A stretch of DNA of 64,000 bases from a virus: the IMG/VR virus record IMGVR_UViG_3300032046_000014, positions 1-64,000 of that record. One strand, 5' to 3'. A program made the position numbers and the translations under genes. The notes under the pieces were generated by a model. It was not told where the DNA came from. It did not search any database and was given only the letters and a program-made list of their open reading frames with translations. Numbering within the stretch: the stretch's first letter is position 1; each line of letters begins with the position of its first letter. Shown piece by piece: positions 7,027 to 63,816 of this stretch.

Positions 7027-9690
7027 TCATCTTTCCTTCGTGCTGACTACGCCGGTAATGAGGGCACCTGTTACTCCAAGCGTAGATAGTTCTGTATATT
7101 TGAGTCTTTTCACACAGCTGAAACTGCTCGAGAGATCTTTCCAGGTTTGATACACGTAGAACTTTTCAGAAAGGTCAGCTGAACCTATCTTGCGTATGAT
7201 GAAGCTGGACTGTAATTCATTGCTGGCCGAAACCCTCAGTGTGAATGAGCAGGACAAGTTACGGCTGCCAATCTTTGTAATAGTGATGCTTGCGGACAGG
7301 TTGATACTACTACTCTTTTCAACAGTGAGACTGCTGGACAGGTCCTTCGAGGCCGACTTTCGCATTGTAACGCTGCAACTTTGAAGAGCACTGCTGGCTT
7401 TGCGTATAATCACATTACAGGATAGCCATGTGGATGCTGTCTTGCGAAGAGTAAAGCTGGACGATAATGCTCTAGCTGCAGTTCTCTGTATGGCAAAGGA
7501 TGAGGAAACATCTGCAGCTGTAGTTTTCCGAACGGTGAAACTCGCGGCAATCGCAGTTGAAGTAGTCTTTCTAACTGTAAAAGAACTTGTCAGATCGCGG
7601 GAAGCTGCTTTCCTGACTGTGAACGAAGATGCAAGCTGAGTATATGTTATTTTGCGCAGAGTGATTGAAGTTGCTAGGTCTTTGACTGCTGTCTTTCGAA
7701 CAGTGAAGCTGGCTGATACTGGTTTGCTGTTGGCCTTTCTGATAGTAATCGAACTGGACAGATTTGTGGATGTTGATTTGCGAATTGTAATTGAAGAAGA
7801 AAGCTTCTTTGATAGGATAACATGTAGACTAGCTGAAAGAGCAGCGGCACCTGTCTTCCTGATTGTGAAAGATGATGACAGATAGCCGACGCTTGGAAAC
7901 ATCACATAGAAGGATGATGATAGATCTCTAGTTGCAGCCTTTCTGACTGTAACGCTGGAACTAAGGGCTTTAGACCCTGATTTTCGGATAGTGACTGATG
8001 AGGACAGTATTCTGGATGATACATTCCTAACTGTGACTGAGCACGATAATGCTTTGGACGCGACTTTGCGCACGCTGAAGGATGAGGATAACGCCTTAGA
8101 GGTTGCCTTTCTAACGACCATGCTGCTTGACAGGGCTTTCGAAGAAGCCTTCCGGACTGTGACACTGGAGCTGAGTATTTTGGAAGACGATTTGCATATG
8201 ATGAATGAGCTGCTTAAAACTGTAGAACTCTTATTCCGTACAGCAAACTCTTCTGACAGATCCTTAGAGCCTATGTTGCGGACGGTGATACTGCATGATA
8301 ATTGTTTAGAAGCGGCTTTTCTGATTGTGAAGCTGGAACTCAATAGTTTGGAAGAACCCTTCTGTATAATGACGGATGAACTAAGAGCTTTAGACCCGAG
8401 ATTTCTAATCGTGATGCTACACGATAGCGGTTTCGAGCTGGCCTTGCATATGGTGAAAGAGGAACTCAAAGCTTTGATTGCGGATTTGCGTACCGTGAAG
8501 GACTGGGTAGATGATGCTTTGGAGGCTGCCTTGCGCACAATCACGGAAGAAGACAGAGCCTTTGATGATTCCCTGCGTATGGTGAAGCTGGACGAAAGCG
8601 GGTTTGTTGCAGATTTGCGAATTGTGAATGAGCCTGAAGCTGCTTTAGATCCTATATTTCTGACAGTGATTGAGGCTGACAGCGTCTTAGAACTGGCCTT
8701 TCGGATTGTGAATGAGGACAAGATTATGTTGCTGGCTGACTTTCTACAGATGAAGCTACATGACAATGCTTTAGACGTGGACTTCCGGATGGTGAATGAA
8801 CTGCTCAGGTTTTGAGAGGCTGATTTTCTAAGAGTGACAGAGGAGGTCAGCGCATTGCTTGCCGATTTTCTTATGGTGAAGTTAGATTGCAGAATTACTG
8901 AAGCAGCTTTTCGAATCGTGAAGCTGGCCCGCAACTTAGCGGAAAGAGTAACATGGAACGACGAGGACAAGTCTTTAGAAGCTGCTTTGCATATCGTGAA
9001 GGAACTGGAGAGCGTTTTGGAACTGCTCTTCCGGACGGTAATGGAGGACGAAACTGTCTTGGTCGCAGTCTTTCTGATTGTAAAACTGGAATTGATTATT
9101 TGAGAGTCTGACTTCTGAATAGTGATTGATGAAGACAGTGTTTTGGAAGATGCTTTGCGAATTATGAAGCTGGATGACAGGGCTTTTGAACTGCTTTTGC
9201 GAATGGTAAAACTGGAACTCAGCGCTTTTGAAGCAGACTTCCTAATTGTCCAAGAGGAAGACAGGGGGTTGGAAGCAGCTTTCCTACAGGTGAAGCTGCT
9301 GGAGAGAGCCTTGCTGCTAGATTTGCGAATTGTAAAGGAGCTGGAGAGCGCTTCAGAAGCTGCCTTTCGAATAGTGAAGCTGGATGATAACGATTTTGAA
9401 GAAGCTTTCCGAATGGTGAGGCTTGAAGATAATGGCTTGGCTGCTATTTTCCGTATGGTGAAACTACTTGACAGTTTACGTGAGAGTGAAACATGAACGG
9501 ACGATGATAGGTCTTTTGAATTTGCCTTACGAATAATCAGATTGGTGGAAAGATCTGCACTGCCAAATTTGCGGATCGTAACACTGCTGGCTAATGATTG
9601 AGCAGCGGTTCTTCTAATTGCAAAGCTAGAGGATAATTGCTTATAGGCTTTTGGTACAAGAGCAAGGCTCTGCGCAATAATAAGAGGCAC
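7027..9690 (-). CDS. 887-aa Ser/Lys/Arg-rich 14-aa tandem repeat protein (putative virion fibre)
   Basis: about 60 units of the type SKALSSSFTIRKSS. Confidence 0.8.
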   Translation of the reverse strand: MPLIIAQSLALVPKAYKQLSSSFAIRRTAAQSLASSVTIRKFGSADLSTNLIIRKANSKDLSSSVHVSLSRKLSSSFTIRKIAAKPLSSSLTIRKASSKSLSSSFTIRKAASEALSSSFTIRKSSSKALSSSFTCRKAASNPLSSSWTIRKSASKALSSSFTIRKSSSKALSSSFIIRKASSKTLSSSITIQKSDSQIINSSFTIRKTATKTVSSSITVRKSSSKTLSSSFTICKAASKDLSSSFHVTLSAKLRASFTIRKAASVILQSNFTIRKSASNALTSSVTLRKSASQNLSSSFTIRKSTSKALSCSFICRKSASNIILSSFTIRKASSKTLSASITVRNIGSKAASGSFTIRKSATNPLSSSFTIRRESSKALSSSVIVRKAASKASSTQSFTVRKSAIKALSSSFTICKASSKPLSCSITIRNLGSKALSSSVIIQKGSSKLLSSSFTIRKAASKQLSCSITVRNIGSKDLSEEFAVRNKSSTVLSSSFIICKSSSKILSSSVTVRKASSKALSSSMVVRKATSKALSSSFSVRKVASKALSCSVTVRNVSSRILSSSVTIRKSGSKALSSSVTVRKAATRDLSSSFYVMFPSVGYLSSSFTIRKTGAAALSASLHVILSKKLSSSITIRKSTSTNLSSSITIRKANSKPVSASFTVRKTAVKDLATSITLRKITYTQLASSFTVRKAASRDLTSSFTVRKTTSTAIAASFTVRKTTAADVSSSFAIQRTAARALSSSFTLRKTASTWLSCNVIIRKASSALQSCSVTMRKSASKDLSSSLTVEKSSSINLSASITITKIGSRNLSCSFTLRVSASNELQSSFIIRKIGSADLSEKFYVYQTWKDLSSSFSCVKRLKYTELSTLGVTGALITGVVSTKER

Positions 9691-11916: not shown

Positions 11917-13344
11917 TTACGATACTGCCTCTTCTTCAGTCCATGTGGTCAATTCAGCCTTTATCACAGATTCAGTTGACAATTCCGCGTATTCATATGT
12001 GATTGCTCTGACTGTGAAGCTGCAGCTCAGGTCAGCTTTCTTCTCGAAACTGAAGCTCGAGGACAAATCTTTGCTGCCGACATTGCGTACGGTGACATTG
12101 CTACGTAGGCGCGCGCGGCTGTAGCTGGCTATTCCGAAGCTTGACGCTAGGTTCGCGTAGGTTACGGGTGCAGGCGGAGCATGAACCAGGAGGCTCGAAG
12201 ATAGAACTGCTGAGGCTGGCCGCGTGACTGTGAAATTCGAAGATAGCTTCACAAAGTTAATGCCTCTGACGAGGAAGCTGCACCTGTAGGACTTGAAACC
12301 TGCATTGCGGACCGTGAGACTGTTGGGCATGTCGGCTGAACTGGTTTTTCGAGGGGTGAATGATGAAGCAAGAGCGCGAGCTGCAGGTGTAACTATGAAG
12401 AACCAGGCACTGAGATCCTTACCAGCTGCTTGGCGTACCTGCAGGCTGGAACTTAGATTCTTAGCTTCAATGATGCCGATAGCCAAACTGGAAGAAACCG
12501 CTGCGGAACGGGCCTGGCGCACTGTAAAGCTATTGCGGAAGTTCGATGAAATTTTCATCACAGTAACATTGCAGGGAAGGGCTCCCGAGCCAGACTTGAT
12601 CGCCACGAAACTACTATGCAGATCGACACTGGCAGGCATCATCACATGAATGGATGAGCTGACCTGTTTGCTGCTGCTCCTTTGCAGTGTTAGGCTTGAG
12701 GAAAGGTTCTTTATCGTTGGCAATGCAAAGGCGCAGGATAGGACTTTAGCGGCTGCGCCTCGAACCGTGAGGCTTGTCCTATAATTGACAAAACCAGCAT
12801 TCTTGGCTGTGACGCTGGCGGAGAGGTTGTTGCTAGGTGAGGAGCGGAGAAGAAAACTTGACGACAAATCGGCCGCGTTGCTTTGCCGCACAACCAGGAA
12901 GGCGCCCGCATCCGCTGAGCCCGGGGTTTGCACTGTGAAAGAACTGGAAAGAACAGTTGAGCTTGGAGTGTTTCTGACTTGGAAGCTGCTGCTGAGGTCA
13001 TAGCAATTCCTGATTGTGAAGCTGGACCTCACATTTCTGCCGGGGTAAACAGGCGTGACGTTAGACCTGAAAGACGCAGATCCTATATTACACGCTATGA
13101 AACTTGACGATAGTGCCTTGATTCCTCTATTACGAATCAGGGCGGATGTAGACAATAATGTTTTTGAAGAACTTCTCCGAATTGAGAATGATGAATGTAC
13201 TTGTTTAGCGGGCACATGCACGGTGAAGCTGGAAGGCACTGTTTTAGATGCAGACTTTCTGATGGTGAGTGAAGAAGAAAGCGGAACGAAGCCAGATTTT
13301 TGAATTGTGGCTGATGAAGACAGCGATGCAGACCCGTCTGTCAC
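11917..13344 (-). CDS. 475-aa 14-aa repeat protein (paralog of 7027..9690)
   Basis: repeated LSSSFTV(R/Q) units; shared C-terminal Y-x-ELST. Confidence 0.8.
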   Translation of the reverse strand: MTDGSASLSSSATIQKSGFVPLSSSLTIRKSASKTVPSSFTVHVPAKQVHSSFSIRRSSSKTLLSTSALIRNRGIKALSSSFIACNIGSASFRSNVTPVYPGRNVRSSFTIRNCYDLSSSFQVRNTPSSTVLSSSFTVQTPGSADAGAFLVVRQSNAADLSSSFLLRSSPSNNLSASVTAKNAGFVNYRTSLTVRGAAAKVLSCAFALPTIKNLSSSLTLQRSSSKQVSSSIHVMMPASVDLHSSFVAIKSGSGALPCNVTVMKISSNFRNSFTVRQARSAAVSSSLAIGIIEAKNLSSSLQVRQAAGKDLSAWFFIVTPAARALASSFTPRKTSSADMPNSLTVRNAGFKSYRCSFLVRGINFVKLSSNFTVTRPASAVLSSSLLVHAPPAPVTYANLASSFGIASYSRARLRSNVTVRNVGSKDLSSSFSFEKKADLSCSFTVRAITYEYAELSTESVIKAELTTWTEEEAVS

Positions 13345-13433
13345 AGTATCAACTCAACGGTTCTCTTGAACGGAAGCTCATCTGTTTTCTAATGTTTTTA
13401 AGGTTCCGCAATAGCGTCACAGAAAAGGGAAAG

Positions 13434-13808
13434 TTAGAAGCCGTCTCGAGTTGCTTTCTCGACCTTCGTTACCTGCAGCTGCACATTCTGGTTTCTCGGA
13501 TCAATGAAAAGTTCCAGCCTGTACACGTTCGGCGACTCGCCAATATGAGCCCCAACAGTTCGCGCTTCAACCATAGGCGGCTTCACCTCCGCTTGCTGAC
13601 CTGGAGACGTCATCATGGCAAGATCCCTGCTTTCAGTCGTTTTCACGAAGAAATTATGCAATGCCGGATGCTTCTTGATACTGATGCTTCTGCCGCTAAT
13701 GATTCTTTCTACAGAAGTAATTTCATCTTCAGGAACGTCCCAAGGATACTTTTCTTTGTCAGTGTAGCTTTTGCCTGATTTCAGGTGGATTATCCATCTT
13801 GTACTCAA
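13434..13808 (-). CDS. hypothetical protein
   Basis: AGGAGA RBS then TTG start inside ORF 13434..13985. Confidence 0.6.
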   Translation of the reverse strand: MSTRWIIHLKSGKSYTDKEKYPWDVPEDEITSVERIISGRSISIKKHPALHNFFVKTTESRDLAMMTSPGQQAEVKPPMVEARTVGAHIGESPNVYRLELFIDPRNQNVQLQVTKVEKATRDGF

Positions 13809-13860
13809 ACTGTTCAGTCTCCTAAATATGCGTAACCCTGAACATGGAATACGCTTTTGC

Positions 13861-14091
13861 CTACGATATTGTTGGAGGCGATGCAACCGCAGGCGTATGC
13901 AAGCTGGCTTTCTGATTTTCCAGCTGCTGTATTTCTGCGCGCAAAGCTTCTGCTTTCTGAGCCAATTCTTCAACGTCCATTTCAAACTTCAAGGACTTCC
14001 TGATTGCTGGGAAAGCCTGCAACGTCTTTACGAAATCCTCAAGTTCTTTGAGATCCGTGAAACGGAGAAGAAGAGTGGCTTCCATGGTCAA
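13861..14091 (-). CDS. small coiled-coil protein
   Basis: ORF with heptad-like C-terminus. Confidence 0.55.
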   Translation of the reverse strand: MTMEATLLLRFTDLKELEDFVKTLQAFPAIRKSLKFEMDVEELAQKAEALRAEIQQLENQKASLHTPAVASPPTIS

Positions 14092-14102
14092 AGATACACT
14101 CT

Positions 14103-14762
14103 CTAAACCTCTTCTACAGAAGATGTTAATATTTGTTCTGTTCCATTATCTCTAGCAAGTTTGAAGAAATTCATCGATTCCGTAAGAATAATAAACTGTT
14201 TTATCTTTTCTGAAGGTTGAACATTCCATTTCTCAGAATAAGTTTCCCATTTATGTCGATTACGAATGTGTCTTTGTCCTTCGGTCCCCAGATTCATCGT
14301 ATCCCTCAAGAAAAGGATATCAATATAATCCTGCACAGTCCATGTTAAAGGATTGCCTCGCAATATGCCCTTCCGAGATTTATGCGAGATTCTGTCCATT
14401 TCAGCTAAAACATATTTGAATTTAAGAAAATCCCTGAACTTAACCGTATGCCACCGTAGAGGGCTGAGAAGATCACAAAACTTCAGATTTTCTTTTATTC
14501 CACAAATAGTCAAACAGGACCTCCAATGTTTGGCTTTGGACAGACCGCTCACTACAAACCTAAGTTTAGCTATAGATGAAATATCACGTTCCCATAGAAA
14601 GTCCCGGATGGAATAGATAGTTTCTTGCTCTTTCTTTGAGACTCCAATATCAAAACGAGGTCTGATTCTTAATCCAAAATGCAGATCATTATCAACCTGA
14701 GCGATAGTAGTGAAGCATCCTTCACCTTCCACATAACCCAGTAGCCAGTCCAAGTCAGACAT
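14103..14762 (-). CDS. single-motif LAGLIDADG homing endonuclease
   Basis: DWLLGYVEGEGCF motif, PRFDIG, KFRDFLKF; AT-richer than flanks; TATA about 25-30 nt upstream (leaderless). Confidence 0.85.
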   Translation of the reverse strand: MSDLDWLLGYVEGEGCFTTIAQVDNDLHFGLRIRPRFDIGVSKKEQETIYSIRDFLWERDISSIAKLRFVVSGLSKAKHWRSCLTICGIKENLKFCDLLSPLRWHTVKFRDFLKFKYVLAEMDRISHKSRKGILRGNPLTWTVQDYIDILFLRDTMNLGTEGQRHIRNRHKWETYSEKWNVQPSEKIKQFIILTESMNFFKLARDNGTEQILTSSVEEV

Positions 14763-14919
14763 ACGGTTATATATGTAATAATCCGCATATAATTTTTGTT
14801 ATAGAAAAACTTACCTATGCTGTTCTCCGCTACGGGAGTTCACCATAAGTCTTTGGATACTGATTCAACCCATCTGCTCAGGCAGTGTATTTTCATCACT
14901 TGCCGAAGGCACAGGTTTT

Positions 14920-15366
14920 TCAACCTGTGTATTCACCTATGCCAGTCAAACTGGACATATTTGGTAACGGAAGTGATGTTTGTTCTTGTCAGTCACAAAG
15001 GGCTAACAATTTGAACAGCACTGTGCCTGAAGTTGCTGGTACAGCTGGGACTTTGACTTTGGTGGCAACGCGGATGCTCTTGTCGTAGCTTTGAACCACT
15101 GACGGTGCGAGGCATTCTTTTCCGCCGCCTACTGACTTCACGTAGTTTGTCTTTGCACTGGTGCTTTCCCAGACCCAAGATTCGTCTTTGGCCTCTGAAG
15201 CGTTTGTCGACCCAAGATAGCTGAGGCTGGCGTTTTTCGCAGTCGCATAGGAACCACTCTTGTTCCTAATATGGTAGGTTTTCTTTGCTGTTGATGTTCC
15301 TACATCAACGACTCCAAAGCTAATGGATGACGGGTTGAAACTTATTGAAGGAGCACTGGATACCAT
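14920..15366 (-). CDS. Ig-like putative virion protein, predicted spliced: join(15366..15011,14979..14961,14931..14920), 128 aa
   Basis: unspliced ORF stops at TGA 14991-14989; removing two BHB introns gives ...GTVLFKHHFRYQYTG*. Confidence 0.75.
14932..14960 (-). other. 29-nt BHB-type mRNA intron 2
   Basis: GT-TACC-AA^A-TATGTCCAG-TTTGA-CTGGCATA-GGTG-AA^T-AC canonical BHB. Confidence 0.8.
14980..15010 (-). other. 31-nt BHB-type mRNA intron 1
   Basis: GTTC-AA^A-TTGTTAG-loop-CTGACAA-GAAC-AA^A; relaxed outer helix. Confidence 0.75.
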
Positions 15367-15434
15367 CTTTTTCGTTCCTCAGAAAAGCACTACTGCCCAT
15401 TACGTTTTTAAGCGTTATCCTCACACGAACTAGA

Positions 15435-15785
15435 TTAATAGTGCGGAGCAGCTATTCCAAGTTGGCTTCTAGGTTCGCAGAAATGTTCTCTGCATAAACT
15501 GGGCCTTTCCAAATAGATCAGGCACCGGTTTGTTTTCTGATCCAAAAATCCACAGGGATAATCACTGTGGCTCATGACCCACACGGGCTCATCATTAATA
15601 GTTTCGATGGAAAGAACCACGTCTCTCTGCAGCTGCCGGGCAAGCTTATTCATTTTGCCAAGCTCTTCTTTCAAAAGAGGAATGAAGACGCCTTTGCGAC
15701 AGCAGTGAGCATTACATTTAGAGCAGAACCGCTGTTGAAATTCCCTTTCAGAATATTCCGGAATCAGATTGATTATTTGACTCAA
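15435..15785 (-). CDS. YkgJ-family (CxxCxxCC) protein
   Basis: CSKCNAHCC...PCGFLD...CLIYLERPSLCREHFC. Confidence 0.8.
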   Translation of the reverse strand: MSQIINLIPEYSEREFQQRFCSKCNAHCCRKGVFIPLLKEELGKMNKLARQLQRDVVLSIETINDEPVWVMSHSDYPCGFLDQKTNRCLIYLERPSLCREHFCEPRSQLGIAAPHY

Positions 15786-15787
15786 CG

Positions 15788-17107
15788 TTATTTTTCTCCT
15801 CTTCTCCTTTTTGCTTTATGAACCCACTGCGTCAGGAAATCTGCAAATTCCGTTGCTTCATCCGGTTCTGCAGGCGCATACAGAGTTAACTGTTCTTTTC
15901 CCCGGCAAATGATTGATGCGGACACTGTAATCTCAGCCTTGTTCATCCAAGTTTTACCTGTAGTCATGCCGTAAGCAGTGACTATTTTCAATGGTCCTCT
16001 CAAAAAACCAGTTTCCATCGGCCAATAATAGTATATTTTGTTTTCGTTCGGAAAGTGTATTGTCCATTTGTGGCCTGCCCAGCCTTGTTTGCCGACATGC
16101 CGTTCCTTCCAGTGGGACAGTTTCTGCAGGTGCAGCAGCAGAATCTGTTTTTTTGGCTTAGTTAATTCTCTGGATCTTGTAAGTAGAATCTTGACTGTCT
16201 CTAGCACTTCTATTAGGGCGCCAGTTCTGTCGTTTGGATAAACGATGGAACAGCGGCCTCCGACCCTGGCAGCCTCTTTTATTGCAAGCAAAGGCTTATC
16301 CAAGTGTTCGATGACATGATGGACGATTACATCATTGAAGACAGTATCCATGAAAGGCAAAGCTTCGGCACTTGCTATAATGTTTACGGCAGTTTCCGTT
16401 TTGAAATATTGATCATACCGGTTTACATCAACTCTTATATGGCCTCTATTATCGACTCCACAGCCAACATTCAGAGTGGCGAATTCATGATTCCGCTGTA
16501 TTTTGATATGCTGAAGTTTTCTGCCCGAAAAGAAATGTTGGATTGACTGAATTTCACCTTGGTCTTCCAGACTGATTTCAGGCATGAATACTTCTTGAAA
16601 TGTTACTGTGGACCGAAGACATTGATGTGGAAATGGCTGTTTGGTCAGAACTCCCGGCGTCGTACATTCGCAGATATAGCATGCTCCTTCGGTTTTGAGG
16701 ACTCTTTTAATTTCCATAATGGCCTTACGGAATTTCCTATCGTCTACAATATGCTGCAGAACCACGTTAGAGACGATTGTATCAAAGCTTTCATCTGGGA
16801 AAGGCAAACCGTCTGCAATGTCAATAAAAAATAGTTCGTCTTGCGGCCGGAGTGTTCGATGTTCCCGGAAGAGCTTCAGCATTTCCGCGCTGAAATCAAT
16901 GCCGACGTATTTCTGGCAGTGCTTGGCCAACGTTTCGTAGAGTCTGCCTGTTCCGCAGCCAACATCCAATAAGATATTACAATCTGCCACTTTTTCAAAG
17001 GCGGCTATGGCTTTCTCATCATCTGCAGTTCCGCCGTTAAAACCAGGAGCAGAAACACCGCAGCGCTGAGCCCGGTGGTCCCAGTAGCGTTTTTCCCATC
17101 CGCTCAT
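15788..17107 (-). CDS. double class I SAM-dependent methyltransferase
   Basis: LLDVGCGTG...LPFPDESFD and a second LNVGCG...LPFMDTVF...HVIEH domain. Confidence 0.85.
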   Translation of the reverse strand: MSGWEKRYWDHRAQRCGVSAPGFNGGTADDEKAIAAFEKVADCNILLDVGCGTGRLYETLAKHCQKYVGIDFSAEMLKLFREHRTLRPQDELFFIDIADGLPFPDESFDTIVSNVVLQHIVDDRKFRKAIMEIKRVLKTEGACYICECTTPGVLTKQPFPHQCLRSTVTFQEVFMPEISLEDQGEIQSIQHFFSGRKLQHIKIQRNHEFATLNVGCGVDNRGHIRVDVNRYDQYFKTETAVNIIASAEALPFMDTVFNDVIVHHVIEHLDKPLLAIKEAARVGGRCSIVYPNDRTGALIEVLETVKILLTRSRELTKPKKQILLLHLQKLSHWKERHVGKQGWAGHKWTIHFPNENKIYYYWPMETGFLRGPLKIVTAYGMTTGKTWMNKAEITVSASIICRGKEQLTLYAPAEPDEATEFADFLTQWVHKAKRRRGEK

Positions 17108-49592: not shown

Positions 49593-49880
49593 TCAATTCC
49601 GCAGAGATAGGAGCTGCTGGCGCACCGCCTTATTCCATCTGAGCTGCATAACGGCTCTGATGCTGATTTTCTGCATCTTAGAATTGCCACAGATAGGACA
49701 TTTGTTTCCCCGACCAGTTTTATGGAAAAGAAATGGTATGGCATGACCCTTTTTTGAACTGTCCTCACAAGTACAGCATTTATAGACTGACAGTTTGTCT
49801 TGCATTCGCCGACCTAGAAACTCCGTGGTTTTCGGCGTTTCCCTCTCCATTCCTAAAAACTTCTTCAAACTCATCTTCAT
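49593..49880 (-). CDS. Zn-ribbon protein
   Basis: YKCCTC...KCPICG; ATGA overlap. Confidence 0.55.
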   Translation of the reverse strand: MKMSLKKFLGMERETPKTTEFLGRRMQDKLSVYKCCTCEDSSKKGHAIPFLFHKTGRGNKCPICGNSKMQKISIRAVMQLRWNKAVRQQLLSLRN

Positions 49881-52800
49881 CCCTCTATCGGCTTCTTTTC
49901 TTCTCCTGGGCTTTGGACCGGGGCTTCAGTCTCTCCCGCAAGTCTATAGTGGCCATCATCTTCATGTTTAATTGGGTCCATGGGTTGCTGATCGGATGGT
50001 CGAAAGGCAAGCCATCTAGGGCTGCCAGACGCAAGCTTAAGGAGCCGGAAGATCCATCTGCCCCGGAGGAGTTTTCCATAGAAGAAGTATTCGTGGAGAT
50101 TGTTTCTTTGGACCCCGTACTTGAACGTGCCTTCTTCCAAAATCTCATAGAAACCACACCTGTTTGTTTCAGCTGCAGATCCTTCTCCGCCGAGAAGCAC
50201 TGGTTTACGTAGGCCCTGGACGTCTAGCCAGCCTCTAGGAAACTTTTTGCTGCTCTGTTTAGGAATGGCCGGTTTGGCCGTGGTCATGCCCTTAATGCTG
50301 CCGCTGAAGAATCTCTGAGTTTTCTCCCAAGGATATGTGAGGAAAGTCCAGCCGATCATGCTTTTCGCGTCGCCTGTGTCCTGGCGAGTTTCCCAATGTT
50401 CACGAAAACCGCCCACGCCCTTCCTTATTTCTTCAGGTTCAGAGTCTCCGAATTCGATGTCTGGCTCTTCAGACTTTGCTAAGTCAGGTTTCAATTGTTC
50501 CCAGACGTAACGTTCAGCCGAGCTTGGGTCTCTTGGTGCAGAAATGGCGTCTCCGGGCGGATTGCCGCCTGCGCTGCTAGGCGGAGAACCTGTGATCTTG
50601 ATATCGCCGGCAGTGTCTGGTTCTATTCTTTTCTCCTTGTTGATCTTGGGTCCATATGGAAAATGATGATGGACGATGAATGTGAAAGCTTTTCCATGCA
50701 GCCATTCGGCCCCCTTGTAAAACTGGGCGGGATATGGATTGCCTTCCTTGGTCTCGGGCAGCTGAGGTTCAGCAGCTTTTTTCAGTCCTCCAGGCAATAC
50801 GAAACCATCATGTGCAGCGAGCACTGGCTTGTCATATTCTGCTTCCAACGCAATCTTTGACAAAGCTTCCGGCATATCCTCTTGCTTCACGCCCAAGTGT
50901 CCAACATGGGTAATTATCACTTGGGGCACACCGTTTTTCTTCGCCTGTTTCAGACTATTCAAGATGCTTTGATGCCCATAATCTTCACCATCTTGCTCTC
51001 GAACGATGTCTCGAGTGAGGCTTGCGCCGTCTATGATCCAGGTTTCCACACCGCCAAGCCACTTGTCACTTATTTCTAGGCAGTCGGGACTATAGAGTAC
51101 GATGCCGTTGATGCGGATGGCGAACGTTTGAACCTTCAAGCTGTGTTTAACTGGGAGCCAGCGGACCTTCACGTTTCCGATTCTGATGGCGTTATAGCTG
51201 CTGTAGAAGTGAAGTTCTCGATGACTCAGTTTCTCAGCGTATTCAGGACGCTGCTCACGTATGTCACGCCATATAGAACGGTGCATGTATATGGGCACGT
51301 CTTCAGACAGAAATTCCAGGCCGTCTATATGGTCCGGATGTGCATGAGTGACGCAGACTGCATCAAGGCGTGTTTGAACCTTCTCCGCGAGCTCCTTGCT
51401 TCCGCAGTCAAGCAGAACGTTCGTACCGCTGTTTTCGAATATGGCGCTTGCATTCAACCTTTTATCGGTGCGACACTGCTCATCATCGCAGTCTTTGCGC
51501 GGAAAAGTTTTCTCTCCGCTTGTACCGAGGAACCGGAGATTCCAGGTTGCAAGCTCAACCGCGTCGGCTGCTGCTCCCCGGCTCGGAGTCCATGTTACAG
51601 GACCTTGCCGAGTTGATTCTTCGGGCGGCATCTGTTTTTCCGTCGGGTTAACGGGCGGCTTTTCAGACGAAAGAGGCTTTCCCGTTTTCGGGTCTGCTCT
51701 ATGGCCAGTCCACGGCGGCCATAACTGTTTCTGCAGAGTGTCTATGCGTTCTTTCAGTTTTTCAGGGTCAGTTGCTGAGGCTCTCACGGTGGCGACCCAA
51801 CCGTCTGCTTCTTCATCGACAGAGATTTTGTAGTTGCTGATGCCGATGCTTTCAAACAGGTTTTCTACTTGAGCTTTCCATTGTTGGGCTTTCGCGTATC
51901 CTTCGGGCCCTTTGAAGAAAACATGAGATGTCAATGATGTCTCGTCAGCGCGCATATACTGTAACGGTGTGATTTCATGGAAAGTATTGTCTGCAGGGTC
52001 GGGAACTCTTTCGCCGCCGCCCATTCCAGGAACGCCTATGACCCCACCGGGAGCATAAGTAAATCCGCCATTTGCTTTCGTCAGCTCTTCCTTTTCTAAT
52101 GGTGTGTTATGGTTCATTCCGCGTTTTTCAATTTCTCTGGCGATGGCATCGTGAAGAGCTTTGACCGTTGGCTTATCATGCACTAGAGGTTTGCCGCTTT
52201 GCAGTGTGCTCCACCAAGCATGTGTGATTCTGTGATCATCGAGAAGGACGCGGTCATCAATCTTGGCCGGATCATACGTGTCTACGTCCTTGATTTTTGT
52301 TATGCCAGCTGAACCTTCTGGACCCGTAGAATCTGCGCTGGGCTCGGGCTTCGTTGTCGTAGTCATGATGCCCTGGTCAAGTCTGCCCGGTTCAAACTGC
52401 TGTGAACCGCTGTCAGGATCAGATGCAAACTGTTTCTGAACTTTCTCATCATGCTGTTGAGAATGTTCTTTCCAGTGGACAGGAACTTCACCATCTGTGA
52501 CTTTGTAGACTTTGCAAATGTCCTTCTCATGCGTGTAAGCAGCATCGTATTCGGGATCTTCTTTTTCCCAGGGACCGCCGGGCTCTTGTTTCCATTCTTC
52601 GAAGTCTTTGTCGCAGAACCAAGCGCGGCCCATTCCTTCAGCATAGAGTACGTCGACTGTCGGAGGGTCTTCGCAGCGCATGCATTTTTGGCGATTAGCC
52701 CTTTTTTCTATGTAGTCAGAGGCTTTCTTGAACTGGGTGATTTCTTCAGGTGTAGGAAGCGATCGTCCTGGACTAATCGGCGCCAGCATATGCAGATATC

Positions 52801-54946
52801 CTGCTACGTCATCGGCTTTCTGAAGGGTTTGACTGGCCAATTCTTCAGCTGTATCCAAACCGTCTGGCACATTCTTTTCAGGCTGGTACATGGGAACAGC
52901 ATTCTGGTATGTGTAGTCGTAACTGTTGTTTTTGACGATTTCCAAGCAGCGAACTCGGAGGATATCCCCCTCAGCTGCTTCTACGCCTGAGACGTGCGTG
53001 TGGCCCATGATAAGCCATTTCTTGCCTTTCATTTCTGCAATACGGTTTGCCGGCAGAGTCTTCGCCTGCGCGTCATTGATGGGGCCTATTGCGCCGAGAT
53101 AGCGCCAGCCTTCCTGTTTGCGTTCTTTCTTGACGACGAGGACGTCGATTTCTTTCTGCTTCTTCCATTTTGCCCATCCGAAATTGATGATTCGCTTAGT
53201 ATTCCATTGGCTTTGTGCGTCGAAGAGCATGGCGCCTTCGCTGCCCTTCAGGTTGCCCATGCGTTCAGCTGCTTCTGCGGTTTTACTTGGCGGTACAACG
53301 GTAAACTGTTCAGGTTTTATGATGGGCAGATGCACGGTTCCTTTGAATTCTTTTCTGAGCAGTTTCAGTCTGTCTATCATGGGCATGTCCGCGAGGCTTT
53401 TTCCGTCTAACTCGATGATGTCGAAGATCCATATTCGGAGGTTGCGGCCTTCCTCTACCGGGGCCTCCCCATTCAAGTATCCGATTGCTAATGTCCGGTG
53501 CATCGGCTGACTGTCCGAATACATCATCGCTTGTCCATGGAGGATGAATGATTCGTGGGGCCAATTTTTCAACTCCTCAATAATATGGGGAACACGACTT
53601 GTCTTGTCAAGTCCCCTGCCACTCCAAACTTTTTCTTTGCTCAGCATCATGTCCATGCCGTCAAACTTCTGCTGAACAAGAACATTGGCAAACCTTCTGA
53701 GAAGGGATGGAAGCTTCTTGACGTCATAGTACCGGGTGGCAGGCTTGTTTGCTTTCGGCAATGATGCCTTCGCTATAAGCTGGCCGTCCTCGACAATGAG
53801 GTCGCTTTTGCCGATTTGCTCTGGAGAATGAACGGTTCTGACGGCTTCCTGGTAAGTGGTGGGGTGCATTTCGACTGCTGTTTCTCCGCCGGGCCCTGCA
53901 GATTCGGGAGTTTGTTTTTCTTCGCTGAACATTTCAGCAGCAGCATGGGCTACTCCGACAACATCTCTCCAGTTGTCGCAGAAGTTCACTCCTAAATCGT
54001 CAATGTACATGTCGGCAACGGGCTTGCCTAGTATGAGCTCATCATAAGAAATTCCGTTCTTGTCGAGCCATCCTGCAGTGAGCTCATAGTACCGGGGATC
54101 TCGAGCGGTGTAAATGACGATGTTTGCCAGGTCATTAAGGTCTTTCATGCTTTCCTGCGCGAGAGTTTTCGGTTTTGCTTGTGTATAGCATTCTGGAATC
54201 GGCAGGTTAGTGTCGGTGTCGGCTATTGTGCCATCCAGGTCGACGGCGATTGTGAGGTCTTGAGTGTCGCTTTTCCATTCAGGCGTCGGGAAAAAGACTT
54301 GTACTCCTCGCTGGTACTTGTAGGATTGTGGAGTTTTGAAGCGGTTGAGAATCTTGAGAGTGTAGGCGTAGAGCATGTTGGCGTCGGGCCACCATCGGGT
54401 TCGCTCTTTGTCGCTGATCTTGTGCTGGGGCTGGAGCTTCTTGAACTGCTCGAGCGTAATGGGCTCGATGTCCGTGAATTTGAGAACTCCATAGACATAT
54501 TCATCGTCGGCCCAGTAGAGCGGTTTGTTGAGCATGCCGCTGTAATTGCGGCATTTTACAGTGAGACTTTTTTCGCCGTTCCAGATCATACGTGCATGGG
54601 GCGGGGCAAGATAAACGCTTTTGGCGTTTATTTGTGAAACTGTGCTCTTGAGACTTTGAACAGTGCTTTTGCCCACGGTCACGCCGTCTAGGTCATCGTA
54701 AGTTTTATGGATGAAACCGCGTCTGTCCATTTCTGCTTGGAGCAACCAGTGATAATCAACCAGATCCTCTATCGACCAGCCTGGCACCGCGTCTGGCACA
54801 TCTTTTTTTCTGCACCAGAGCGCGTGACATAAGGCATGGTCAAACAGCAACTGTTGATCAACAAGTTCTCCAGGAACCGACATGGCAGTTAGGCTCTCCG
54901 GCTTAAATCCTCCTTGTTTACCCGCTGTTTCGTAGGGTCTACCCAT
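49877..54946 (-). CDS. 1689-aa polyvalent protein: ASCH, HAD phosphatase, ATP-dependent ligase + OB, Zn finger, metallo-beta-lactamase (RNase Z/PhnP-like), LigD phosphoesterase-like
   Basis: YLAPPHARMIWNGEK; AVDLDGT/YTAR/GKP..DMYIDD; QKFDG/FDIIELDG/SEGAM/WAKWK; FLGTSG/LLDCG/THAHPDH/ITHVGH/AHDG; HHH...HWETR...GRWIF. Confidence 0.8.
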   Translation of the reverse strand: MGRPYETAGKQGGFKPESLTAMSVPGELVDQQLLFDHALCHALWCRKKDVPDAVPGWSIEDLVDYHWLLQAEMDRRGFIHKTYDDLDGVTVGKSTVQSLKSTVSQINAKSVYLAPPHARMIWNGEKSLTVKCRNYSGMLNKPLYWADDEYVYGVLKFTDIEPITLEQFKKLQPQHKISDKERTRWWPDANMLYAYTLKILNRFKTPQSYKYQRGVQVFFPTPEWKSDTQDLTIAVDLDGTIADTDTNLPIPECYTQAKPKTLAQESMKDLNDLANIVIYTARDPRYYELTAGWLDKNGISYDELILGKPVADMYIDDLGVNFCDNWRDVVGVAHAAAEMFSEEKQTPESAGPGGETAVEMHPTTYQEAVRTVHSPEQIGKSDLIVEDGQLIAKASLPKANKPATRYYDVKKLPSLLRRFANVLVQQKFDGMDMMLSKEKVWSGRGLDKTSRVPHIIEELKNWPHESFILHGQAMMYSDSQPMHRTLAIGYLNGEAPVEEGRNLRIWIFDIIELDGKSLADMPMIDRLKLLRKEFKGTVHLPIIKPEQFTVVPPSKTAEAAERMGNLKGSEGAMLFDAQSQWNTKRIINFGWAKWKKQKEIDVLVVKKERKQEGWRYLGAIGPINDAQAKTLPANRIAEMKGKKWLIMGHTHVSGVEAAEGDILRVRCLEIVKNNSYDYTYQNAVPMYQPEKNVPDGLDTAEELASQTLQKADDVAGYLHMLAPISPGRSLPTPEEITQFKKASDYIEKRANRQKCMRCEDPPTVDVLYAEGMGRAWFCDKDFEEWKQEPGGPWEKEDPEYDAAYTHEKDICKVYKVTDGEVPVHWKEHSQQHDEKVQKQFASDPDSGSQQFEPGRLDQGIMTTTTKPEPSADSTGPEGSAGITKIKDVDTYDPAKIDDRVLLDDHRITHAWWSTLQSGKPLVHDKPTVKALHDAIAREIEKRGMNHNTPLEKEELTKANGGFTYAPGGVIGVPGMGGGERVPDPADNTFHEITPLQYMRADETSLTSHVFFKGPEGYAKAQQWKAQVENLFESIGISNYKISVDEEADGWVATVRASATDPEKLKERIDTLQKQLWPPWTGHRADPKTGKPLSSEKPPVNPTEKQMPPEESTRQGPVTWTPSRGAAADAVELATWNLRFLGTSGEKTFPRKDCDDEQCRTDKRLNASAIFENSGTNVLLDCGSKELAEKVQTRLDAVCVTHAHPDHIDGLEFLSEDVPIYMHRSIWRDIREQRPEYAEKLSHRELHFYSSYNAIRIGNVKVRWLPVKHSLKVQTFAIRINGIVLYSPDCLEISDKWLGGVETWIIDGASLTRDIVREQDGEDYGHQSILNSLKQAKKNGVPQVIITHVGHLGVKQEDMPEALSKIALEAEYDKPVLAAHDGFVLPGGLKKAAEPQLPETKEGNPYPAQFYKGAEWLHGKAFTFIVHHHFPYGPKINKEKRIEPDTAGDIKITGSPPSSAGGNPPGDAISAPRDPSSAERYVWEQLKPDLAKSEEPDIEFGDSEPEEIRKGVGGFREHWETRQDTGDAKSMIGWTFLTYPWEKTQRFFSGSIKGMTTAKPAIPKQSSKKFPRGWLDVQGLRKPVLLGGEGSAAETNRCGFYEILEEGTFKYGVQRNNLHEYFFYGKLLRGRWIFRLLKLASGSPRWLAFRPSDQQPMDPIKHEDDGHYRLAGETEAPVQSPGEEKKPIEG

Positions 54947-63490: not shown

Positions 63491-63565
63491 TGGCGGTCTG
63501 TGCGGGAGTTGAACCCGCCTCAGTCGAGTGACAGTCGACCATCCGCACCGGCGGACTTACAAACC
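63491..63565 (-). tRNA. tRNA-Asp(GTC)
   Basis: GTCGA-CTGTCAC-TCGAC arm, GCGGG-TTCAACT-CCCGC, encoded CCA. Confidence 0.85.
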
Positions 63566-63654: not shown

Positions 63655-63816
63655 TGGTGCAGAGGACCGGATTTGAACCGGCGCGTCCGCCTTGCGGAAA
63701 GAGGTTTCTCACAGGCTGAACAGTCGTTCCTAACCGTCCTTAGCTTCGAGCTTACGACTTGAGCTTCGAGCTGGGTCTTAAGCCTCTCGCTTTCAGCCAT
63801 GCTTGGCTACCCCTGC
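63655..63816 (-). tRNA. tRNA-Leu(TAA) with 71-nt intron at 37/38 (63706..63776)
   Basis: AGAGG-CTTAAG^...TGAGAA^A-CCTCT; long variable arm; encoded CCA. Confidence 0.85.

Follow-up and report, generated by a model that had tools for sequence, protein, structure and literature searches.

Predicted bulge-helix-bulge mini-introns and a neighboring LAGLIDADG endonuclease gene as a putative composite selfish cassette in a tailed virus of archaea

An intron of the bulge-helix-bulge (BHB) type was reportedly described by Watanabe in 2002 in the crenarchaeal cbf5 pre-mRNA. Here we analyze a viral protein-coding gene that carries two candidate introns of this type, 31 and 29 nucleotides (nt) long, upstream of a gene for a predicted LAGLIDADG homing endonuclease. 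The stretch of DNA analyzed (hereafter the window) comprises bases 1-64,000 of the 84,303-nt IMG/VR virus record IMGVR_UViG_3300032046_000014, a record that is 78% complete. We propose that the two BHB mini-introns and the free-standing endonuclease gene probably constitute a composite selfish cassette, a version of 'collaborative homing' built with a BHB intron.

Splicing of the BHB intron in the cbf5 pre-mRNA of Crenarchaeota has been shown experimentally (Yokobori 2009, PMC2738675), and as of 2009 cbf5 was the only gene for which archaeal mRNA splicing by tRNA-splicing enzymes had been confirmed by experiment (PMC2738675). The window gene resembles cbf5 in carrying short, protein-free BHB introns in a protein-coding gene, in the presumed use of tRNA-splicing endonuclease and ligase, and in lineage-specific presence or absence. 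However, cbf5 is a cellular gene with a single intron, no associated homing endonuclease and experimentally demonstrated splicing. The window gene is instead viral, has two introns 19 nt apart at its extreme 3' end, is linked to a LAGLIDADG gene, is polymorphic in the population, and has splicing that we infer.

Collaborative homing is known from phages, as in cyanophage psbA/F-CphI and in the trans homing of T4 mobE/I-TevIII (PMC2988022, PMC2790892). The arrangement in the window is similar: a free-standing endonuclease gene lies beside a conserved putative target that is split by an intron lacking an open reading frame (ORF), and appears to be co-inherited with flanking DNA. The phage systems involve self-splicing group I ribozymes in bacteriophages and enzymes of the HNH, Endo VII and GIY-YIG families, whereas the system proposed here would combine a protein-dependent BHB element of 29-35 nt, an archaeal virus and a LAGLIDADG enzyme of predicted specificity. 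Archaeal rRNA genes contain BHB introns that encode LAGLIDADG endonucleases, including I-DmoI, I-PorI and I-Vdi141I, and these share with the window the pairing of BHB introns with the LAGLIDADG family in Archaea. In the rRNA genes the endonuclease ORF lies inside an intron of several hundred nucleotides, whereas in the window the endonuclease gene is free-standing, begins with a start codon of its own downstream of the intron, and the intron-bearing gene codes for a protein. In PMC2738675, movement of BHB introns is documented only for large rRNA introns that carry their own endonuclease.

Very short insertions in protein genes of an archaeal virus have been suggested as introns once before. 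In the rudivirus SIRV1, 12-bp indels in protein genes were proposed to be putative introns (Peng et al. 2004, cited in PMC2738675). By the account in PMC2738675, these indels are in frame, and neither their splicing nor a mechanism for their insertion was demonstrated. By contrast, the window insertions are frame-shifting, include a stop codon and follow the BHB rule exactly, and intron-less alleles reveal the product to be expected from them. A full-text literature search returned nothing on BHB introns in protein genes of archaeal viruses other than the SIRV1 12-bp proposal.

The window gene reads without splicing as a 125-amino-acid ORF (15366..14989, minus strand) with the C-terminus LFKLLALCD, and the TGA stop of this ORF falls within the first insertion. 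By direct reading, the minus strand contains ...GTGCT-GTTC-AAA-TTGTTAG-CCCTTTGTGA-CTGACAA-GAAC-AAA-CATCACTTCCGT- and continues 3' of CATCACTTCCGT with TACC-AAA-TATGTCCAG-TTTGA-CTGGCATA-GGTG-AAT-ACACAGGTTGA. These letters form two units, 19 nt apart, each composed of a 4-nt helix strand, a 3-nt A-rich bulge, a hairpin, a complementary 4-nt strand and a second 3-nt bulge; TACACAGGTTGA follows the second unit. Archaeal EndA cuts BHB motifs after the second nucleotide of each bulge. With the cuts placed by this rule (marked below by a slash, with H and H' for the strands of the central helix), the features are:

15011..15366, minus strand: predicted exon 1, encoding residues 1-118 and the first two bases of the Lys119 codon of a 128-amino-acid, predicted all-beta (Ig/pilin-like) protein.
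14980..15010, minus strand: predicted intron 1, 31 nt, GTTC (H)-AA/A-TTGTTAG...CTGACAA-GAAC (H')-AA/A, with an in-frame TGA at 14991-14989.
14961..14979, minus strand: predicted exon 2, 19 nt, ACATCACTTCCGTTACCAA, which finishes the Lys119 codon and then encodes H H F R Y Q.
14932..14960, minus strand: predicted intron 2, 29 nt, TACC (H)-AA/A-TATG(T)CCAG...CTGGCATA-GGTG (H', one G.U)-AA/T.
14920..14931, minus strand: predicted exon 3, 12 nt, TACACAGGTTGA, encoding Y T G and a stop codon, equal to the YTG-stop end of homologs.
14763..14919, minus strand: spacer between the predicted spliced stop codon and the endonuclease gene.
14762..14103, minus strand: predicted free-standing LAGLIDADG homing endonuclease gene, 219 amino acids, with the single motif LLGYVEGEG.

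The boundary of intron 1 can slide by at most 2 nt inside the A runs with no change in the product. Together, introns 1 and 2 likely interrupt the last ten codons of a conserved 128-amino-acid beta-sandwich gene.

We identified 25 relatives of the window protein, with identities of 57-85%, in a collection of 5.8 billion proteins. The C-terminus FKHH[F/V/H]RYQYTG is present in 21 of the 25 (one of these adds DD), and H121 and R123-G128 do not vary when 25 full-length members are aligned. One 128-amino-acid protein (P0026), a 90% cluster-mate of the window's own protein (P0018) that was seen on four contigs, differs from it by two residues upstream of the introns (Q to A and D to N) and ends ...LFKHHFRYQYTG. 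Deleting 15010-14980 and 14960-14932 from the window in silico gives ...GTVLFKHHFRYQYTG followed by a stop codon, and the P0026 C-terminus, HHFRYQYTG, is the exact product of this deletion. The original prediction, made from the window sequence, had placed two tandem BHB introns in this gene and anticipated intron-less alleles ending F-x-H-x-F-R-Y-Q-Y-T; such alleles exist, as the FKHH[F/V/H]RYQYTG homologs and P0026. It had also named the ending LLALCD as one that would speak against introns if homologs shared it, and among the 25 homologs this ending belongs solely to P0018. On re-reading, its minus-strand sequence, intron coordinates, 31- and 29-nt lengths and 19-nt middle exon are all correct.

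Comparison at the DNA level gives the same boundaries. A related 84-kb IMG/VR contig (L001) carries the same gene at 73% identity, ending GTVLFKHHVRYQYTG and a stop codon, and affine-gap pairwise alignment of the window with this contig contains two clean gaps of 31 and 29 nt. Exon 2 matches two other intron-less loci (L004 and L007) at the conserved codons, with synonymous differences only. Alignment to the homologs confirms that both segments are exact insertions relative to every intact homolog. No exact copy of intron 1 or intron 2 was found elsewhere in IMG/VR, and a scan of genome contigs returned no relatives of the gene.

We identified a second instance in a 1.6-kb metagenome contig (L011) whose gene is 57% identical to the window gene. 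This locus has a single 35-nt insertion, TACC-AGA-AAGAtCTAGC-ATATATTT-GTTAGtTCTT-GGTA-AAT, at the site of intron 2 (hereafter site 2). The insertion is unreadable in frame because it is 35 nt long and contains an internal stop. Its inner stem has no sequence in common with that of window intron 2, but the helix, central helix and bulges are kept, and splicing by the same rule would give YQYTG followed by a stop codon. In a close intron-less relative of this locus (L012), the last four codons differ at synonymous positions only. The combination of conserved structure without conserved sequence and intact downstream exons in two lineages is our main argument that the insertions would be removed at the RNA level. 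Two BHB introns in a viral protein gene, as originally predicted, are in this way supported by sequence comparison with the homologs, P0026 and L011.

Three of the database relatives (P0022, P0024 and P0028) have aberrant tails of unrelated sequence from the intron-2 position onward. P0024 and P0028 have a common tail of ~38 residues (TLSACLKRVSTRAKSA...), while P0022 ends ...RYHEFQLD. In P0024 and P0028 the tail starts with a Thr codon (ACN), which would once more make A the third bulge nucleotide. These tails probably mark further, longer insertions at site 2.

BHB motifs are defined by a 4-bp central helix and two 3-nt bulges on opposite strands, and relaxed hBH and HBh' forms are known among non-canonical archaeal introns (PMC4090602). 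All three insertions have the central helix: GTTC/GAAC in intron 1, TACC/GGTG (one G.U) in intron 2 and TACC/GGTA in L011. Their bulges are AAA and AAA, AAA and AAT, and AGA and AAT, respectively. The inner helix (h') is strong in each, with 7 bp in intron 1 (one G.U), 8-9 bp in intron 2 (with a 1-nt bulge) and 9-10 bp in L011, and both window hairpins co-form in the 109-nt minimum-energy fold. With all six cuts placed behind the second bulge nucleotide, the ends become HHFRYQYTG in the window and YQYTG in L011, each followed by a stop codon, which equals the intron-less alleles. In our assessment, removal of the insertions from the mRNA through BHB splicing is quite probable.

To gauge chance, we generated 400,000 shuffles at the given insertion length and site, and counted those with a 4-bp central helix formed with the upstream exon, an inner stem of the observed quality and a frame-restoring register. 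The chance of such a BHB is 1.2e-4 for window intron 1, 3e-5 for window intron 2 and 7.5e-6 for the L011 insertion. Random genomic segments used as a control gave rates similar to or below those of the shuffles. These values bear on the possibility that the insertions are never removed and are instead repair scars or junk that truncate the protein to ...LFKLLALCD, in a gene that is tolerated in this state or decaying. Gene callers do report the unspliced ORF (P0018). However, three independent insertions all form a BHB in the frame-restoring register (p 1e-4 to <1e-5 each), the downstream exons are intact in two lineages only 57% identical, and the segment lost would be the invariant terminal beta-strand. 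We therefore regard simple truncation as very improbable.

BHB-like motifs are common in this genome. A generic scan, of the kind suggested by the original prediction, gave 643 matches in 84 kb, and a coding-aware scan, in which removal had to extend an ORF by at least 20 codons, gave 200. Both counts are at background, no hidden introns are discernible in them, and hidden introns need comparison with homologs to show. What sets the window BHBs apart from chance is that they coincide exactly with segments missing from intron-less alleles; rarity of the motif plays no part. The match with the longest stem (11 bp) lies at 68333-68433 of the record (minus strand), in a non-coding region.

Two other ways of bridging the insertions were considered. 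Group I self-splicing introns are ruled out by size, as the insertions are 29-35 nt long and a ribozyme core (P3-P8) needs ~200 nt or more. An Rfam search of 13000-15500 at E-values up to 10 gave noise only and no Intron_gpI match; at gathering thresholds, Rfam matched only tRNAs in the whole window and nothing in 64001-84000 of the record. The second is translational bypassing (ribosome hopping). In phage T4 gene 60, a 50-nt coding gap is bypassed in this manner and the gap is tied to a mob endonuclease. The insertion of mobA at gene 60 is mentioned in PMC2988022. Intron 1 has features that would suit a hop, namely matching take-off and landing codons (AAA...AAA) with a hairpin between them. 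However, intron 2 and the L011 intron lack a matching codon pair from which a hop would give QYTG, the take-off codon of intron 1 is not followed by a stop, and all three insertions fit the BHB rule instead. Bypassing is, in our judgment, barely credible.

The protein encoded downstream of the introns matches the LAGLIDADG family (Pfam accession PF00961) at 37.6 bits, above the cut-off of 23.1, over positions 1-101 of the 102-position profile. The Glu of its LLGYVEGEG motif sits at the position of the catalytic Asp/Glu, and its best PDB relatives are LAGLIDADG enzymes, including the archaeal rRNA-intron enzyme 3e54. Since there is only one motif, the predicted endonuclease is expected to be of the homodimeric type. 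A word-based protein search with this sequence returned only the window's own protein, and an IMG/VR scan with a two-sequence endonuclease alignment returned only distant LAGLIDADG proteins (23-33% identity).

The second sequence comes from L011, which has a LAGLIDADG ORF at the same downstream position (37% identity to the window endonuclease, E-value 2e-25). The distance from intron to endonuclease gene is ~170 nt in the window and ~65 nt in L011. Across 11 loci, the endonuclease is found in both intron-bearing loci (the window and L011) and in none of the nine intron-less loci (2/2 vs 0/9, Fisher p about 0.02); in the fetched DNA of those nine, it was absent at that place and anywhere else. 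The intron sites also lie in the most conserved DNA of the gene. On balance, we favor the view that the predicted endonuclease targets the intron site or sites. A palindromic target at site 2 was also sought; only TACnnGTA was found (~4/10 symmetric positions), which is not above chance and was dropped as evidence.

The spacer region contains several other elements. An A-rich/TATA-like element, AAAAATTATATG, lies at ~14797-14786 (minus strand), 24-35 nt upstream of the endonuclease ATG, and is a candidate archaeal B recognition element (BRE)/TATA promoter for a leaderless endonuclease mRNA. A small hairpin at 14825-14845 (minus strand; GAACTCC-loop-GGAGAAC) has counterparts in L001 (5411-5428) and in a further locus, L008 (both GTTCTCC-loop-GGAGTTC). 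The shape of this hairpin is conserved, it lies just upstream of a T-rich promoter-like element of the next gene, and it may be a terminator or regulatory stem. In L001, an ORF for a 76-amino-acid coiled-coil protein directly follows the gene. In L012, the downstream spacer position where L011 has its LAGLIDADG gene is occupied by a 337-amino-acid ORF (L012:396-1409, plus strand) with TnpB/IS200-IS605 OrfB-like features by eye (a C-terminal CxxC...C zinc motif). The first ~25 nt past the shared spacer in L012 resemble the start of the L011 endonuclease ORF and are possibly a remnant of it.

A search for 13400-16400 among runs recorded as RNA gave no match. We also compared DNA contigs of four other sediment metagenome runs with the window over 13000-16500. 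Two features emerged:

14143..15028, minus strand: polymorphic block, 886 nt, comprising the gene 3' end with both predicted introns, the spacer and most of the endonuclease ORF.
15029..15109, minus strand: tract dense in single-nucleotide polymorphisms (SNPs), which borders the cassette and looks like co-conversion or recombination.

The near-identical variant that dominates all four runs has 160 other letters in place of the block, between 14142 and 15029, about the size expected for an intron-less gene end (49 nt) plus a spacer. The window form was found in runs X2 and X3 on low-depth contigs (~3.5x vs ~16x and 9x) with 0 differences over 14281-15067. Carrier and non-carrier genomes coexist in the same sediment samples. 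The major variant of run X2 has 8 differences from the window at 15076-15109, 2 at 15029-15067 and 0 in the next 1,089 nt (to 16198). Both amino-acid differences between P0018 and P0026 fall inside the 15029-15109 tract. This pattern fits a recently transferred cassette with a co-converted flank, and ordinary recombination with a diverged relative would look identical.

In the mechanism proposed here, the insertions with their BHB geometry and intact spliced frame, the linkage to the endonuclease gene and the polymorphic block with its SNP tract are observed; we infer that splicing occurs in vivo, where the endonuclease cuts and in which direction the cassette spreads. A pre-mRNA with two BHB motifs would be transcribed from the viral gene; host EndA would cut each 3-nt bulge after its second nucleotide, and an RtcB-type ligase would join the three exons, so that the protein regains its invariant last strand, ...FKHHFRYQYTG. 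Cleavage of intron-less alleles by the endonuclease would most likely fall within the conserved DNA that encodes HHFRYQYTG, while a carrier genome would be protected by the intron or introns that split this target. During co-infection, double-strand-break repair would then copy the endonuclease gene, the introns and some flanking DNA into intron-less genomes.

The most substantial alternative accepts the introns as genuine and host-spliced but treats them as unrelated to the endonuclease, with the downstream spacer acting as a hot spot for mobile genes and the co-occurrence reflecting coincidence or shared ancestry. The association draws on just two endonuclease-bearing loci, the TnpB-like ORF in the same spacer of L012 suggests a hot spot, and intron 1 is left unexplained by a single target at site 2. 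Set against these points, genomes of a near-clonal population gain or lose the endonuclease gene together with the introns, in a single 886-nt block, the pairing is seen again in a lineage whose gene is only 57% identical, and the intron sites fall in the most conserved DNA of the gene, as homing targets predict. We consider an unrelated endonuclease unlikely.

Several observations nevertheless weigh against the cassette mechanism or against parts of it. First, a typical ~22-bp LAGLIDADG footprint centered on site 2 would not reach intron 1, which is 19 nt away and is without counterpart elsewhere. A single-target model therefore leaves the presence of intron 1 unexplained; this intron could be a relic of the target of another endonuclease, or it could extend protection. 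Second, the proposed linkage to the endonuclease draws, as noted, on two loci. Third, if the cassette arrived recently, the intact exons of the window alone are no proof of selection for splicing, and that argument then rests mainly on L011. Fourth, the dominant variant is taken to be intron-less from P0026. Finally, the outer helix (h) of the BHB motifs is weak: in intron 1 it is AGTG/CACT behind an asymmetric loop, and in intron 2 it has 2 bp. Local folding energies computed with ViennaRNA are also unremarkable (z -0.5 to -1.2). By predicted structure the motifs are of a relaxed HBh'-like class and not strict hBHBh', and this relaxed class is reported to be cut only by broad-specificity EndA types (PMC5829648). 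A strict alpha4- or alpha'2-type EndA might fail to cut the window BHBs because their outer exon-exon helices are weak.

The introns could also have a use for the virus. In one view, splicing would be an adaptive switch or isoform generator; a splicing-gated switch or isoform generator was put forward in the original prediction. Partial or conditional splicing would then give three C-termini, or splicing would tie output of a late protein to the tRNA-splicing capacity of the host. Unspliced, half-spliced and fully spliced RNA would end in LLALCD, ...YQICPV and ...YQYTG, each followed by a stop codon, and partial splicing is compatible with all measurements. However, most viruses with the gene, among them the dominant near-identical variant, lack the introns, which are therefore dispensable. 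An invariant C-terminus throughout the family speaks against any usefulness of alternative tails, and a homing endonuclease gene combined with presence/absence polymorphism is what marks a selfish element. No specific support for the switch or isoform generator emerged, and we find it quite improbable. A second view in the same prediction, in which the introns disrupt a nuclease or CRISPR target, divides in two: the nuclease part gained support from the linked LAGLIDADG gene, the presence/absence polymorphism and the SNP tract, and the CRISPR part gained none. It seems likely that the introns are not a regulatory invention of the virus and instead are one half of a selfish cassette. No rival explanation accounts as well as the cassette mechanism for all three insertions, for the second lineage and for the polymorphic block.

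On sequence evidence, the virus is an archaeal tailed virus; among 50,697 phage records, its major capsid protein and portal have matches in archaeal tailed viruses only, namely Haloarcula viruses and a Methanofastidiosa virus. We identified five relatives of the capsid protein (L014-L018, 37-50% identity) on short contigs in metagenome-assembled genomes labelled Parvibaculum, Bacillota, TA06, 'archaeon' and Woesearchaeota; most likely they are viral contigs that were mis-binned, and they are uninformative for host assignment. Upstream of 85 ORFs, Shine-Dalgarno-like motifs occur at -15 to -10 and a global TATA peak is lacking, a result that is not decisive for domain.

The virus also encodes a tRNA with an intron. 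Its tRNA-Leu(TAA) gene (63655-63816, minus strand) has a 71-nt intron at the canonical 37/38 position, with sites CTTA-AG/A...TGAG-AA/A-CCTCT, and the same cutting rule gives a 7-nt anticodon loop with G37. At 71 nt, this intron is far too short for a ribozyme. The BHB-like intron implies that the virus already depends on a host splicing endonuclease, and neither EndA nor RtcB was found among the genes of the 78%-complete viral record. The tRNA cluster comprises tRNA-Leu(TAA), tRNA-Ala(TGC), tRNA-Gly(TCC) and a fourth tRNA-like Rfam match (63494-63565) that ARAGORN did not call.

The product of the intron-bearing gene is probably a virion surface or fiber component. An AlphaFold model built from a 25-sequence alignment (predicted local distance difference test score, pLDDT, 72) is an all-beta sandwich whose last strand, residues 119-125, is encoded by exon 2. 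Foldseek gave weak matches only, to donor-strand pilins such as FimA (E-value ~1e-3, TM ~0.55-0.6). The gene neighborhood contains large repeat-rich, fiber-like ORFs, with methyltransferase and glycosyltransferase genes nearby. One of the ORFs in this region (11917-13344, minus strand) encodes 475 amino acids that consist almost entirely of ~20-residue repeats ending SSSF or SSSL; this ORF and an 887-amino-acid ORF (7027-9690, minus strand) match the giant PHROG phrog_11333. Both probably encode fiber or surface-array proteins and belong to one module with the intron-bearing gene. Farther away, between the portal and prohead-protease genes, a 1689-amino-acid ORF (49877-54946, minus strand) contains an ATP-dependent ligase domain and a metallo-beta-lactamase (PhnP/RNase Z-like) domain, with weaker matches besides, and its product might be a head-packaged protein for healing and sealing nucleic-acid ends.

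For three mini-introns in a viral gene, comparison with other alleles fixes the spliced product to the nucleotide. This locus opens a long-standing question, the gain of short archaeal introns, to direct testing. The locus also illustrates that genes of archaeal viruses can escape standard ORF calling, as the deposited protein of this virus is truncated. We give even weight to the broader proposition, for and against, that an ORF-less BHB mini-intron and a free-standing LAGLIDADG gene form a two-part mobile element now segregating in a natural archaeal-virus population. If this is true, viruses would be both targets and vehicles of archaeal introns, expression of viral late genes would depend on the tRNA-splicing machinery of the host, and gene callers would systematically mis-annotate such genes as truncated.

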